26,558 nt of DNA from Candidatus Hadarchaeum sp. (GTDB lineage Archaea; Hadarchaeota; Hadarchaeia; Hadarchaeales; Hadarchaeaceae), in the NCBI RefSeq assembly GCF_038871235.1, contig NZ_JAVZIN010000013.1, forward strand, positions 1 through 26,558, read 5' to 3'. Below the pieces are notes generated by a model that saw nothing but the letters and a program-made list of their open reading frames with translations, ran no database searches and was not told the origin of the DNA. Below, piece by piece: positions 4,772 to 26,558 of the stretch (positions are counted from its first letter, which is position 1; each line of letters begins with the position of its first letter). Made by a program: the position numbers and the translations under genes.

Positions 4772-5479
4772 CTAAATGTTCCTTACCTCAAAGCTTTTGA
4801 ACATTCCGCTTATCGCCTTTCGCGTCCTTTCGACGGCCTCACGGGGCCAAGGTGCCATCTGCTCAAACCGCGGGTCGACAGTGGAGTGAGGGGCAAACTG
4901 CTGAATCGCGTATCTTCTCGCCCCCCTCAGATAGGTGGCTATCTTGACAACATCGTCAGGCGAAAGCAGTTCGGGGACGAGGGTGGTCCTGAACTCATAA
5001 TCCACCGGGGAATTTCTGATCAGCTCAATGCTCTCGAGCACCCTCTCAAAAACAGCGCTATCGTCCACACCGGTCAACTCCCGGTAACGCTCCGGTGTTA
5101 ATGGGGCCTTGACGTCCATTGAGATGTAGTCAATCAGCCCGGAATTGATCAGGTCATCCAAAACTCTAGGATCGGAGCCGTTGGTTGCGACCGAAACTTG
5201 GAGCCCCTTCTCCTTTACCCGCCCGCAGAAATCTTTCAAATCAGGCTGTAGGGTCGGCTCCCCGCCGGTGATGGCTATCCCGTCCAGCCACTTTCGGCGC
5301 TTCTCCACCGCGGCGAAGATATCCTCCTCGGTGATCACGGGCATTGACTCCGGTCTGAGCACCAGGTCCCGATTCTGACACCAGGGGCACCTAAAGTTAC
5401 AACCGCCGGTGAAGACCACGGCAACGGCTTTGCCCGGAACCTCATTGAAGGAGATAGTAATCAACCCGTTGACTCTCGT
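4772..5479 (-). CDS. nrdG: Anaerobic ribonucleotide reductase activating protein (radical SAM)
   Basis: VFTGGCNFRCPWCQN, ITGGEPTLQ and YEFRTT, directly downstream of nrdD. Start is uncertain: ACG 5479 behind an SD, or TTG 5464. The ORF-track start at 5587 overlaps nrdD. Confidence 0.9.
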   Translation of the reverse strand, partial: TRVNGLITISFNEVPGKAVAVVFTGGCNFRCPWCQNRDLVLRPESMPVITEEDIFAAVEKRRKWLDGIAITGGEPTLQPDLKDFCGRVKEKGLQVSVATNGSDPRVLDDLINSGLIDYISMDVKAPLTPERYRELTGVDDSAVFERVLESIELIRNSPVDYEFRTTLVPELLSPDDVVKIATYLRGARRYAIQQFAPHSTVDPRFEQMAPWPREAVERTRKAISGMFKSFEVRNI

Positions 5480-11862: not shown

Positions 11863-12618
11863 ATGAAAATCAAGGTGGAGACCAAAAATTTAAACGTTTG
11901 GTATGGCCAAAGCCACATCGTCAAGAACTTCTCCATCAAGATACCAGAGAAAAAAATCACGGCAATAATCGGGCCGTCGGGGTGCGGTAAATCAACCTTC
12001 ATAAAAACGCTCAACAGGATGGTGGAGTTGACGCCGGGCGCGAGGGTCAGCGGTGATGTTTTCGTGGACGACAAAAACATCTACGGGTCTAATGTCGACG
12101 CGACCGAAATTCGGTGGAAAATGGGGATGGTCTTCCAGAAGCCCAACCCATTTCCAAAATCCATATTTGAAAATGTGGCCTACGGTCCCAGAGTTCACCA
12201 CTTAGTTAGCAATGAAAAACTGGATCAACTGGTGGAGGAAAATCTAAAAAAGGCCGCGCTTTGGGAGGAGGTCAAGGATAGGCTCAGGATGTCAGCTTTT
12301 GAACTATCCGGTGGCCAGCAACAGCGCCTGTGCATAGCCCGGGCCTTGGCAGTTAACCCTGAGGTCATCTTAATGGATGAACCTTGTTCAGCTTTGGACC
12401 CGATCGCGACGACGAAAATTGAAGACCTTCTCTTTGACTTGAAAAAGAACTACACCATCGTCATCGTGACGCACAACTTGCAACAGGCGGCGCGGGTCTC
12501 TGACTTCACCGCCTTCATGTATTTGGGAACGCTCATCGAGTACGGAAAAACAGAGGAAATGTTTGAGAGGCCTAAAAATAAACAGACACAGGATTACATC
12601 ATGGGGAGATTTGGGTGA
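11863..12618 (+). CDS. pstB: Phosphate ABC transporter ATP-binding protein
   Basis: Walker [39 protein letters not shown] and C-terminal YIMGRFG. Confidence 0.97.
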
Positions 12619-13286
12619 AAGAACCAACCGTTAAAGTTAGAAAGAGGCTCTCCGAGGAGCTCGAGGAGCTGAAATCAATGATGATGGAAATGAGTTCACT
12701 AGCCACCGCCTCGGTAGAAAAAGCGGTCGGGAGCCTAGCCAAACAAGATGTCAATCTGGCGAACAAGGTGATAAAGGAGGATGACAAAATAGACGCTCTT
12801 GAACTCGAGATTGAAAACAAGTGCATGCATCTGATTGCCCTGCAGCAACCAATGGCAAAGGATCTTCGCGTTATTGGGTCTTGCCTAAAGATAATCACCG
12901 ACTTGGAGAGGGTGGGCGACCGGGCTGCTGACATCGCTCAAATTACCAAACAGCTCGCTGGTAGGCCCTTAATCAAACCGCTCGTTGACATCCCGAGGAT
13001 GGCGGAGCTTGCCATAGCTATGGTTAAGGACAGCGTCAGAGCTTTCAAGGAAGAGAATTCCCTGCTGGCTTGGGGCTTGGGTGAAAGGGACGATGAAGTG
13101 GACAAACTGGCCCATCAGGTCAACCGGGAGCTCTTTTCATTTGTCGTCGAAGACCCTAAGAAAATATCCGACGCCTTCCGCCTGATGTTTGTCGCTTCCT
13201 TCTTAGAGAGAATCGCCGATCATGCCACCAACATCGCCGAAAGAGTAATCTACATGGAAAGGGGGGAAAGGGTAAAAATAAACTGA
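12615..13286 (+). CDS. phoU: Phosphate signalling complex protein PhoU
   Basis: [16 protein letters not shown] and [13 protein letters not shown]. Confidence 0.95.
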
Positions 13287-23616: not shown

Positions 23617-23693
23617 ATCCCCACCAGTGATATCACGGTGTTACTCTTTTTTATCATTTTTGAAAAAGCTCCGAGGACATCTATCAAAGAAGA

Positions 23694-23723
23694 GGCGGGC
23701 CCGGTGGGATTTGAACCCACGAT
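23694..23723 (-). repeat. att site: duplicated 3' half of a tRNA (T-arm plus acceptor strand)
   Basis: Minus strand ATCGTGGGTTCAAATCCCACCGGGCCCGCC gives T-stem GTGGG/CCCAC, T-loop TTCAAAT, acceptor 3' strand CGGGCCC, discriminator G and CC. No matching 5' half is adjacent. Confidence 0.9.
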
Positions 23724-24594
23724 ATGCACCAGAGGGTTTGAGAAAAAGTTTGACCAAAAAGCGATTGAAGAAATTATGAGCCGTTTCAGGCAGCACCTCG
23801 AGATAGATTTGCTGAGAGCGCCGAGGACTGTTGACACCCATGTGAGGAACGCGCGGGAGTTTTTGGAGTTTGTGGCAAAGCCGCCGGAGCTGATAACCGC
23901 TGATGACGTGAGGAGCTATCTGGCGCAGCACCGACACCGACACCCCAACACCTACATGCACCGGCTGAAGGCGGTCCGGGTTTTCCTGCGCTACATTGGC
24001 AAGGAGGAGATCGGAAAAATGTTCAAGTTCCCGCGCCTGGAGCCGCCGTTTCAGGAAGCGCCCAAGGATGACGAGCTGGCAAAGTTCTACCAAGCGCTGG
24101 AGAGCCTGCACGATAAGGCCTTCTTCCTGGTGCTGGCCACAAGCGGGCTCAGATACAGCGAGGCGAAAAGCCTGAGAGTGGAGGATATCGACCTCGACAC
24201 CGGGATGGTGGTGCCGCACCGGAACGAGGTCAGGACCATCGGCACCAAGAACACCGGCATGACCTTCATCAACGGCGAGGCGCTCGAGGTGTTGAAGCAA
24301 TACCTGAAGGAGAGCGGCAAAAACAGCGGGCAAATTTTCGATGAGCTCAGAGGGAAATCGGGGACATGGTATAGATGGAAAATCGCGCGGGAGAAGTCTG
24401 GCACTAAAATCAGGCCCAAGGACCTGAGGCTTTGGTTCAACGTGAAAATGGCGCTGGCCGGTGTCCCAGATCGCTACGTTGACTTTTTCTGCGGCCGGGC
24501 CAGAAGGACCATCATCGCGCGGCATTACTCGGAATATTCGCCTGGGATCCTCAAAGAGATCTACAACAGGGCCGGGCTGAGGGTGCTGGGCTAG
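23695..24594 (+). CDS. int: SSV-type tyrosine integrase, C-terminal fragment int(C) split at the att site
   Basis: Begins with the tRNA-antisense peptide AGPVGFEPT, then a core-binding region. Catalytic residues are R (SGLRYSE), K (GTKN), KxxR (KDLR), R (CGRA) and Y (ARHY). First internal ATG is at 23776. Confidence 0.88.
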   Translation, partial: AGPVGFEPTICTRGFEKKFDQKAIEEIMSRFRQHLEIDLLRAPRTVDTHVRNAREFLEFVAKPPELITADDVRSYLAQHRHRHPNTYMHRLKAVRVFLRYIGKEEIGKMFKFPRLEPPFQEAPKDDELAKFYQALESLHDKAFFLVLATSGLRYSEAKSLRVEDIDLDTGMVVPHRNEVRTIGTKNTGMTFINGEALEVLKQYLKESGKNSGQIFDELRGKSGTWYRWKIAREKSGTKIRPKDLRLWFNVKMALAGVPDRYVDFFCGRARRTIIARHYSEYSPGILKEIYNRAGLRVLG

Positions 24595-24633: not shown

Positions 24634-24710
24634 AAATATAACAGTGTGATTAACGCAAATAATCTTAAAAAATCGCTCAGCCGAGTTTTAATTGGAAAAA
24701 ATTAAAAGAG

Positions 24711-24935
24711 GTGGTAAAAACGCGCGGCGCCATTGCGGTAATTTTCAGCAGCATCATCATGATCGCCGTGCTAGGCTGGGTCACCAACACCGTGCTGGGC
24801 AGCGTCCAAGCGGACAACGACATCCTCGGGGTCGAGTCGGCCCTGGCTACCTACGGACCCGTCGTCGTCACCATCACCATCATAGGCCTGTTCGTGCTCG
24901 GCGTTGGGGTGATGCTGAGGTTCCTGGTTGGATGA
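24711..24935 (+). CDS. Small two-hydrophobic-helix protein, candidate spindle-shaped-virus major capsid protein
   Basis: 74 aa: hydrophobic helix, polar linker (VQADND), G-x9-P, second hydrophobic helix, then a basic residue. It has its own AT-rich upstream region and a downstream T-tract. Confidence 0.6.
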   Translation: MVKTRGAIAVIFSSIIMIAVLGWVTNTVLGSVQADNDILGVESALATYGPVVVTITIIGLFVLGVGVMLRFLVG

Positions 24936-24949
24936 GGCCCTGAAGCTGA

Positions 24950-24981
24950 TTTTATTTTTTTTGACCTTTTTTTCATTTTTT
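24950..24981 (+). terminator. Oligo-T archaeal terminator
   Basis: TTTTATTTTTTTGACCTTTTTTTCATTTTTT directly after the small membrane gene. Confidence 0.6.
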
Positions 24982-25049
24982 ACTAACTGTCTCCCATCTG
25001 CTAATTTTTGGCACCATCATTTCTCCGAGTTGGGACAGGAGATAGATTA

Positions 25050-26162: not shown

Positions 26163-26342
26163 ATGGTAAAAAAAGTCCCGTTGGTGGCGTTGGTCCCGCG
26201 CGAGCTGAAAACTGCGCTTGAACTTGCGATCCTCGAGAAGCACGGCGTGGTTGGGAATAAAATCAGCCCCACCGTTGAGGCCATCATCCGTGAATGGATT
26301 GAGAAGAACCGGGGTGTGATCGCGAATGAGGAGCACGGATGA
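26163..26342 (+). CDS. Small ribbon-helix-helix (CopG/Arc-like) DNA-binding protein
   Basis: Not in the ORF track (59 aa): MVKKVPLVALVPRELKTALELAILEKHGVVGNKISPTVEAIIREWIEKNRGVIANEEHG. Pattern is strand, P-helix, turn, IS..VE..IREW helix. Confidence 0.65.
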   Translation: MVKKVPLVALVPRELKTALELAILEKHGVVGNKISPTVEAIIREWIEKNRGVIANEEHG

Positions 26343-26558
26343 TCATATCTACATAGCAAACAAACCGGCGGAAGCCTACGCGGTGGCCGTGCTTACTTCT
26401 TTTAGCCACGGGATCAAACGGGTGCGCATCCAGGGGCTGGGGCAGCAGGCGGGCAAAGTGCTGGCCGTGGCCAAGCTCCTTTCCGACACGGGGCAGGCCC
26501 GGATCGTTGAAATCAAGCCCATCACCAAAGAGGGCATCAAGGGCACTCTCGCCACACT
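26326..26558 (+). CDS. Divergent Alba-like nucleic-acid-binding protein (3'-truncated by window edge)
   Basis: Not in the ORF track: MRSTDDHIYIANKPAEAYAVAVLTSFSHGIKRVRIQGLGQQAGKVLAVAKLL... follows the Alba pattern (I-G-x-KP-xxx-Y...G...V-x-I-KARG-x-AI-x-KA). SD GGGGTG lies upstream. Confidence 0.65.
   Translation, partial: MRSTDDHIYIANKPAEAYAVAVLTSFSHGIKRVRIQGLGQQAGKVLAVAKLLSDTGQARIVEIKPITKEGIKGTLAT

Follow-up and report, generated by a model that had tools for sequence, protein, structure and literature searches.

The coat proteins of spindle-shaped archaeal viruses such as SSV1 (VP1 and VP3) and His1 (VP21) are about 70-90 amino acids long and comprise two hydrophobic helices, a polar loop of 14-32 residues and a very short tail. 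The loop of SSV1 VP3 is longer than that of VP1 and is rich in T, S and N. Small hydrophobic hairpins of two helices are also formed by the VirB2/TrbC and CedA1 pilins. The Hadarchaeota are a phylum of hot springs and the subsurface from which, to our knowledge, no virus has been isolated.

The SSVs and the plasmids pTN3 and pT26-2 have an integrase of the suicidal type, in which the attachment site lies within the integrase gene and the gene is divided into two parts, Int(N) and Int(C), when the element inserts itself in a tRNA gene. In the available text of PMC8371274, this type is described as exclusive to archaea, where it is found in fuselloviruses and in the two plasmids; its consensus is given as R..KxxR..Y, and the hosts named for such elements are Sulfolobales, Thermococcales, Archaeoglobales and Methanosarcinales. 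Because it is also borne by plasmids, the suicidal integrase marks an archaeal mobile element and not specifically a virus. In PAV1, small membrane proteins are interleaved with genes for an ATPase, ORF375, and for ORF678, a Laminin_G_3/concanavalin-like protein. According to the available text of PMC3543421, PAV1 has a plasmid-like half, to which ORF375 is assigned, and ORF375-like ATPases are shared with pTN2-type plasmids.

Here, we analysed a window of 26,558 nucleotides, which is the entire contig C13 of a 16-contig, 1.2-Mb assembly (G000) of a Candidatus Hadarchaeum species. The window encodes a two-helix hairpin protein of 74 amino acids, P0001, a membrane protein of a mobile element with an SSV-type integrase. 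The layout of P0001 is that of the spindle-virus coat proteins, and its family includes long forms with an additional domain, predicted to be folded, in the loop.

An element integrated in a tRNA gene

Most of the window consists of housekeeping genes, among them nrdD, pyr genes, pst and CTP synthase (Pfam), and the sequencing runs that contain its DNA are hot-spring metagenomes. Over its 40 nt, the segment 23689-23728, on the reverse strand, duplicates the T-arm and acceptor stem at the 3' end of a tRNA gene, with 40 of 40 positions matching nucleotides 63309-63348 of another contig of the assembly, C9. There, these nucleotides belong to a complete tRNA gene with an apparent intron. In the relatives G007, G006 and G002, homology to the window stops exactly at position 23728 and continues into the C9 tRNA and its neighbours; in G007, the window-side and C9-side homologies overlap by 35 nt. 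The site is uninterrupted, or empty, in all three relatives examined. Based on the 40-nt duplicate and these empty sites, the element sits in the tRNA gene: a mobile element is integrated at the 3' end of this gene, and P0001 lies just inside its left border, where 23689-23728 is the left attachment site. A mobile element had been supposed when only the sequence was read, and the duplicate, the empty sites and the split integrase described below confirm it.

The element extends from position 23729 of the window to the end of the contig and, after a gap, from position 65445 of C9 back to 63349. It is cut by the contig end, and about 4.9 kb of it are visible. A Logan contig from run X1 extends 1204 nt past the window end; in this run, the depth of the element (8.7-10.3) is similar to that of the host part (11.2). 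An exact 50-mer from the window end was not found in metagenome contigs.

The target tRNA gene on C9, at about 63235-63348 (L011 ~5236-5349), has matching acceptor-stem ends and an extra internal stretch, which is the apparent intron. ARAGORN called 22 tRNAs in the whole assembly, and this gene was not among them.

The integrase

The forward-strand segment 23689-24594 encodes Int(C), which is the catalytic portion, located C-terminally, of a tyrosine integrase of the suicidal SSV type. It matches the Pfam families Phage_integrase (2.7e-12), Phage_int_SAM_4 (1.7e-8) and Phage_integr_3 (PF16795, 3.7e-8), and the catalytic motifs GLRYSE, KDLR (KxxR) and RHYSEY, with a C-terminal Y, can be read in its sequence. 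The frame of Int(C) passes through the attachment site (AGPVGFEPTIC), and so does the frame of the Int(N) reading frame, which is found on C9 at the other end of the element. When Int(N) and Int(C) are joined in silico, they give a protein of 376 amino acids, and an unsplit homologue from G053:C102 can be aligned to this junction protein from residue 25 to residue 375 with an E-value of 9e-32.

The integrase is of the suicidal SSV type, split into Int(C) in the window and Int(N) on C9. As in the SSVs, pTN3 and pT26-2, the attachment site is inside the gene, the two parts flank an element integrated in a tRNA gene, and both PF16795 and the R..KxxR..Y pattern are present. It differs from these integrases in its host, which belongs to the Hadarchaeota, and in the N-terminal part of Int(N), which has a CcdA/RHH-like stretch. 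Homologues of this integrase were found in 16 of the 66 genomes of the phylum. In two of them, the DNA between the split halves is only about 2.6 kb (G009) and 4.7 kb (G053) long and consists of unrelated cargo. Whatever P0001 does, the locus extends the suicidal SSV-type integrases to Hadarchaeota, and the empty-site controls support this extension.

In the two tiny elements, which correspond to L048 12605-15223 (G009) and L054 9175-13870 (G053), the attachment repeats are derived from tRNA and are read through in frame.

Gene and predicted structure of P0001

The reading frame of P0001 (24711-24935, forward strand) is one of 126 in the window that encode at least 50 amino acids. It has a GTG start, and its product of 74 amino acids includes LGVESALATYGPVVVTI. 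It is a real gene, beyond a chance reading frame, because a homologue of 82 amino acids with 56% identity exists and because a profile search recovers a family of related proteins. The 70 nt located 5' of the gene are AT-rich, and the region 24640-24710 (forward strand) comprises TATA-like words and a Shine-Dalgarno-like word, GAGGTG, that overlaps the GTG start (window 24708-24722). An in-frame ACG is found at 24720, 6 nt past the GTG. Since GAGGTG overlaps the GTG and this ACG is in frame, the true start of P0001 may be located three codons later. Four T-runs follow the stop codon; these oligo-T tracts (24936-24992, forward strand) were read as an archaeal-type terminator. The AT-rich region and the T-runs, all identified by reading, agree with the proposal of the sequence-only reading that P0001 is expressed as its own unit.

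In the AlphaFold2 model, which was made from an alignment of 11 rows and has a mean pLDDT of 72, P0001 is composed of two helices, residues 5-31 and 41-73, connected by a short polar linker. The two hydrophobic helices and the polar linker that had been noticed in the sequence are reproduced by this model. P0001 can be described as a small integral membrane protein whose two hydrophobic helices are linked by a short, probably exposed loop.

The P0001 family

The family of P0001 is rare: an exhaustive profile search of 1,835,955,588 representatives (1.84 billion) returned 19 proteins at E ≤ 1e-3, of which 8 were at E ≤ 1e-10. Its distribution is sporadic, with members in 2 of the 66 genomes of the phylum, the source assembly included. 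Searches of IMG/VR, of JGI metagenome contigs and of species-representative genomes recovered no member. A protein identical to P0001 is encoded on a contig of 362 kb, and the family members P0005, P0017 and P0022 are encoded on JGI contigs of 8.2, 14.1 and 4.3 kb, respectively. P0001 had no match in Pfam, PHROGs, NCBIfam or PADLOC, and a tblastn search of phage and archaeal-virus records gave one match, with E = 1. The PDB sequences, searched with the family profile, yielded PsbY only (E 0.048), which was judged a chance match.

The alignment of the family reveals the common motifs AVLGWV, NDxLGV, YGP and, at the C-terminus, LRYLGVV. The proteins can be divided into short forms of 72-118 amino acids and long forms of 171-257 amino acids. 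In many short forms, a variable leader at the N-terminus, often ending in G, precedes the helix. The long forms have the helix at their very start, and an insert of 100-180 residues separates their helix 1 from the NDxLGV motif. This insert is rich in T, N and D, is nearly free of K and R and has 1-5 NxS/T sequons. In the model of a long form (pLDDT 58 overall and 73-84 in the core), the insert is predicted to be a β-sandwich located between the two helices. Comparison of this model, with its mean pLDDT of 58, to the PDB by Foldseek gave generic β-sandwich or jelly-roll matches only, with TM values of 0.25-0.34. These matches, which include the tip of lambda gpJ, the sugar-binding domain of Fbs1 and CBM61, serve as a lead only. 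A loop that is exposed and tolerates insertions, as these models predict, would suit a surface lattice better than a pilin, a toxin or a holin.

Comparison with the coat proteins of spindle-shaped viruses

P0001 has the layout of VP1 and VP3, in which a short polar loop separates two hydrophobic helices in a protein of about 70-90 amino acids, and it shares with these proteins and with His1 VP21 the very short tail and carriage by an archaeal mobile element. The likeness in size and hairpin layout to fusellovirus and His1 coat proteins, from which the sequence-only reading had started, is therefore upheld. The loop varies in the P0001 family, as it does between SSV1 VP3 and VP1. The family differs from the known coat proteins in its motifs NDxLGV, YGP and LRYLGVV and in having long forms with a β-domain, predicted to be folded, in the loop.

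A second difference is found in the sequence comparisons. Nine members of the family (P0001, P0003, P0005, P0007, P0009, P0010, P0017 and the 86-aa and 252-aa proteins of G018) were scanned against PF06281 and PF25665, and none matched at E ≤ 10. In the control, PF06281 was matched by SSV1 VP3 (1.8e-38) and SSV1 VP1 (2.4e-19), and PF25665 by His1 VP21 (1.5e-37). The hhalign probabilities of the family were 0.7% with His1 VP21, 0.23% with SSV1 VP3 and 0.14% with SSV1 VP1, and the comparison of the family profile to a His1-like profile of 14 sequences gave 0.6%. The same His1-like profile finds SSV1 VP1 with a probability of 53% and an E-value of 1.4e-4, over both helices; the method is therefore able to detect a known distant link. 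Because the HMM and profile tests are negative while the positive control works, P0001 cannot, at the level of sequence comparison, be assigned to the VP1/VP3 or His1 coat families, and the membership suggested earlier does not hold. Part of that suggestion was a shared G-x9-P spacing. The SSV1 VP1 segment TGTNATLLNLVPLFYIL is indeed present in the SSV1 record, in the reading frame 12567-13001, and its G-x9-P spacing is the same as in P0001; however, hhalign aligns exactly this stretch with a probability of only 0.14%, so that the spacing stands and its significance does not.

The coat protein of PAV1, ORF121, which had also been put forward for comparison, matches the family at background level: the hhalign probability is 1.2%, and the score was reached by 3 of 36 background two-TM reading frames of the same genome and by 2 of 100 shuffles. 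The structural search proposed in the sequence-only reading gave no support either, as the P0001 monomer had no Foldseek match at E ≤ 0.001 among the viral models of BFVD. A two-helix hairpin is a fold too simple to be discriminated by structure search.

The nearest feature neighbours of P0001 in the ESM Atlas are viral clusters, and they bear the names of these coat proteins. The first named cluster is 'His1 virus capsid protein domain-containing', with 194 of 256 features and a score of 0.91; in 100 cases, chance alone produces a score of 0.9 in 4-10. It is followed by a VP1-like cluster, 29% of whose members have PF06281, and by a cluster in which 11% of the members have His1_capsid, both at 0.88.

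A second genomic context

The only other genomic context of the P0001 family in the phylum is contig G018:C42 (20.5 kb; L015, L027). In this contig, a short form of 86 amino acids adjoins a long form of 252 amino acids, as tandem paralogues. On the same strand, 5' of this pair, are multi-TM proteins of 104 and 122 amino acids. Also encoded upstream on this strand are a protein of 1138 amino acids, which has DUF2341 and is anchored in the membrane at its C-terminus, a third two-TM hairpin, which has the motif DNSLGV, and a coiled-coil protein of 1037 amino acids. DUF2341 is a member of the concanavalin-like clan. Other products of the contig are two integrases, a CAAX protease, a Walker-A protein of 601 amino acids and a P-loop ATPase of 372 amino acids, which is homologous to PAV1 ORF375 over nearly its full length (blastp 1.6e-12).

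G018:C42 resembles PAV1 in its ORF375-like ATPase, in its giant membrane-anchored DUF2341 protein and in the interleaving of small membrane proteins with such genes. The match to the ORF375-type ATPase is direct, and the candidate adhesin is recognized by DUF2341 only; neither gene is seen in the element of the window. The 1138-aa protein has no direct match to PAV1 ORF676 or ORF678, and the region upstream of the ATPase did not reveal an ORF137. The other PAV1 proteins had no blastp or phmmer match on the G018 contig at E ≤ 0.01 and none in the source assembly at 1e-3. Further points of difference from PAV1 are the background-level match of P0001 to ORF121 and the location of ORF375 in the plasmid-like half of the virus. 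When the 1138-, 1037-, 601- and 372-aa proteins were compared to phage records, two marginal partial matches only were obtained, and a comparison of the 601- and 372-aa proteins to PDB sequences gave nothing useful. Judged by its genes, G018:C42 looks like a mobile element throughout and represents a candidate Hadarchaeota virus.

Other genes of the element

Downstream of P0001, the reverse-strand segment 25050-26069, a stretch of low GC (0.38), encodes a protein of 339 amino acids with an N-terminal ArsR-type winged helix (Pfam HTH_20 1.1e-8, HTH_5 4.5e-6). A reading frame of 59 amino acids (26163-26342, forward strand) was described as ribbon-helix-helix-like by reading only; it overlaps the next gene and had no match in Pfam, NCBIfam or PADLOC. 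This next gene (26326-26558, forward strand), which is cut by the contig end, is Alba-like (Pfam Alba 4.5e-7; NCBIfam AlbA 2.1e-7, below cut-off), and tblastn found no other match to it in the assembly. The part of the element on C9 encodes a small zinc-finger-like protein, further unannotated reading frames and a second two-helix hairpin. This second hairpin (81 amino acids; L011 6149-6394, reverse strand) is located at the other end of the element, and its helix 1 is weakly similar to the P0001 family (hhalign probability 16%).

In the visible 4.9 kb, Pfam and PADLOC detect no adhesin, ATPase, VirB4/VirD4, conjugation or defence family. Tail or adhesin genes and an AAA ATPase, which the sequence-only reading had listed as companions to look for, were not detected in this part. 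The conjugation genes that it had named as evidence to the contrary were likewise not detected, either in the visible element or in G018:C42. The 19 spacers of the CRISPR array in the source assembly did not match the element, G018:C42 or the integrase-bearing loci; the longest exact match was 16 nt.

The Alba-like gene was considered as a marker of the host-side border and rejected, as the empty site of the relatives places it inside the element. A contig of run X2 shares segment 26295-26558 and differs to the left of 26295, and the ribbon-helix-helix-like/Alba pair is therefore also found in another context.

Possible role of P0001

We propose that P0001 is a structural, coat-like protein, possibly of a new coat-protein family. 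This is the best single explanation, and we assign it a probability of about 0.45. The element entered the 3' end of the tRNA gene by means of its suicidal integrase. P0001 would be a building block of a membrane-associated particle, made by a non-tailed archaeal virus-like element as a virion or a virus-like vesicle, and would act as a functional analogue of the hairpin coat proteins of spindle-shaped viruses. In such a self-assembled particle, the helices of P0001 would pack side by side with the loop outward, and the long paralogues would display their β-sandwich domain in the loop. The coat-like role is favoured by the viral language-model neighbours, by the context in G018:C42 and by the predicted β-sandwich in the loop of the long forms. 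It is also favoured by the sporadic carriage on mobile elements, the suicidal integrase, the dimensions of the hairpin and the second, weakly similar hairpin at the other end of the element. The kinds of genes seen in G018:C42 are also those of the PAV1 and His1 structural modules. Several results speak against this role: no family profile is matched, Foldseek gave 0 matches, the visible 4.9 kb has no adhesin or ATPase, ORF375 lies in the plasmid-like half of PAV1, IMG/VR has no member of the family and no CRISPR spacer matches.

Close behind the coat-like role ranks a non-structural one, which we regard as a serious though somewhat weaker candidate: P0001 may be a membrane protein that an integrative plasmid or a small cryptic integrative element carries as cargo or as an accessory, with no part in a virion, and may function in superinfection exclusion, in membrane remodelling or as a small toxin- or holin-like protein. 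P0001 appears to be a stand-alone transcription unit adjoining the integrase, and the visible element otherwise encodes DNA-binding proteins only. As the integrase relatives in G009 and G053 bracket 2.6-4.7 kb of unrelated DNA, P0001 could be mere cargo; suicidal integrases are also described on plasmids in the available text of PMC8371274, and ORF375-like ATPases in pTN2-type plasmids in that of PMC3543421. However, the helices and loop motifs of the family are strongly conserved and short and long paralogues occur in tandem, its nearest language-model neighbours are coat-like viral clusters, and the G018 gene lies among adhesin-like and small membrane proteins. A β-sandwich inserted in the loop, as predicted by the model, would be hard to reconcile with a toxin or holin. 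It is improbable that P0001 is instead a very divergent true homologue of the SSV1 VP1/VP3-His1 VP21 superfamily, and the element a fusellovirus- or halspivirus-like lemon-shaped provirus. The size and layout are the same, the Atlas neighbours carry the names of these families, and the integrase is of the SSV type, but the HMM and profile-profile tests are negative where the same method recovers the link between SSV1 and His1. Moreover, the G-x9-P stretch has no significant alignment, and no DnaA-like ATPase, VP4-like or protein-primed polymerase gene was seen in the window or in G018:C42.

The two hydrophobic helices of P0001 and the leader of many short forms, which is variable and often ends in G, are also features expected of a pilin, either a conjugative one of the VirB2/TrbC or CedA1 type or an archaeal type IV pilin-like surface protein. 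We consider this very improbable. The window, the C9 tail and G018:C42 have no Pfam match to VirB4, VirD4, TraG, a HerA-type ATPase or a pilin family, and neither context of the P0001 family shows a transfer ATPase or channel gene. The G is preceded by variable residues (R, P, G, T) rather than by the K/R of class III signal peptides, and the long forms begin at the helix. Type IV pilins are characterized by a single N-terminal helix, whereas the conserved second helix is always present in the P0001 family. The loop insertions set the family apart from VirB2/TrbC and CedA1 pilins, and we know of no VirB2-type pilin with a domain of 100-180 amino acids inserted in the loop.

With the coat-like role as the preferred reading, it is possible that the element encodes a lemon-shaped virion, as the sequence-only reading had supposed. 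The language-model neighbours and the context in G018:C42 are in keeping with this idea, and the family tests and visible gene content speak against it. A bolder version of the coat-like role appears rather doubtful to us. In this version, P0001 would found a new hairpin coat family of PAV1-like or spindle-shaped Hadarchaeota viruses, in which the short form makes the shell, the tandem long form displays a receptor- or glycan-binding β-sandwich, and the proviruses use suicidal integrases. If P0001 is a coat protein, it provides a first handle on the non-tailed viruses of Hadarchaeota and adds, to the few hairpin capsid proteins, a family with a built-in display domain. If it is mere cargo, the cryptic element simply carries an ordinary gene for a small membrane protein.

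Other features of the genome

The CRISPR array of the assembly is located at the start of contig C1 (31-1416) and consists of 20 repeats of 33 nt and 19 spacers. In relatives, short DNA matches were considered as CRISPR spacers and rejected, as they are located in ordinary genes and not in arrays. Both ends of contig C16 (10.9 kb, GC 0.46) match the right end of contig C8 in inverted orientation, over 127-149 nt with 96-100% identity, which suggests a segment flanked by inverted repeats. In the housekeeping part of the window, segment 16720-18105 (reverse strand) is a single reading frame of 461 amino acids with OMP decarboxylase and phosphoribosyltransferase domains, an apparent PyrF-PyrE fusion.
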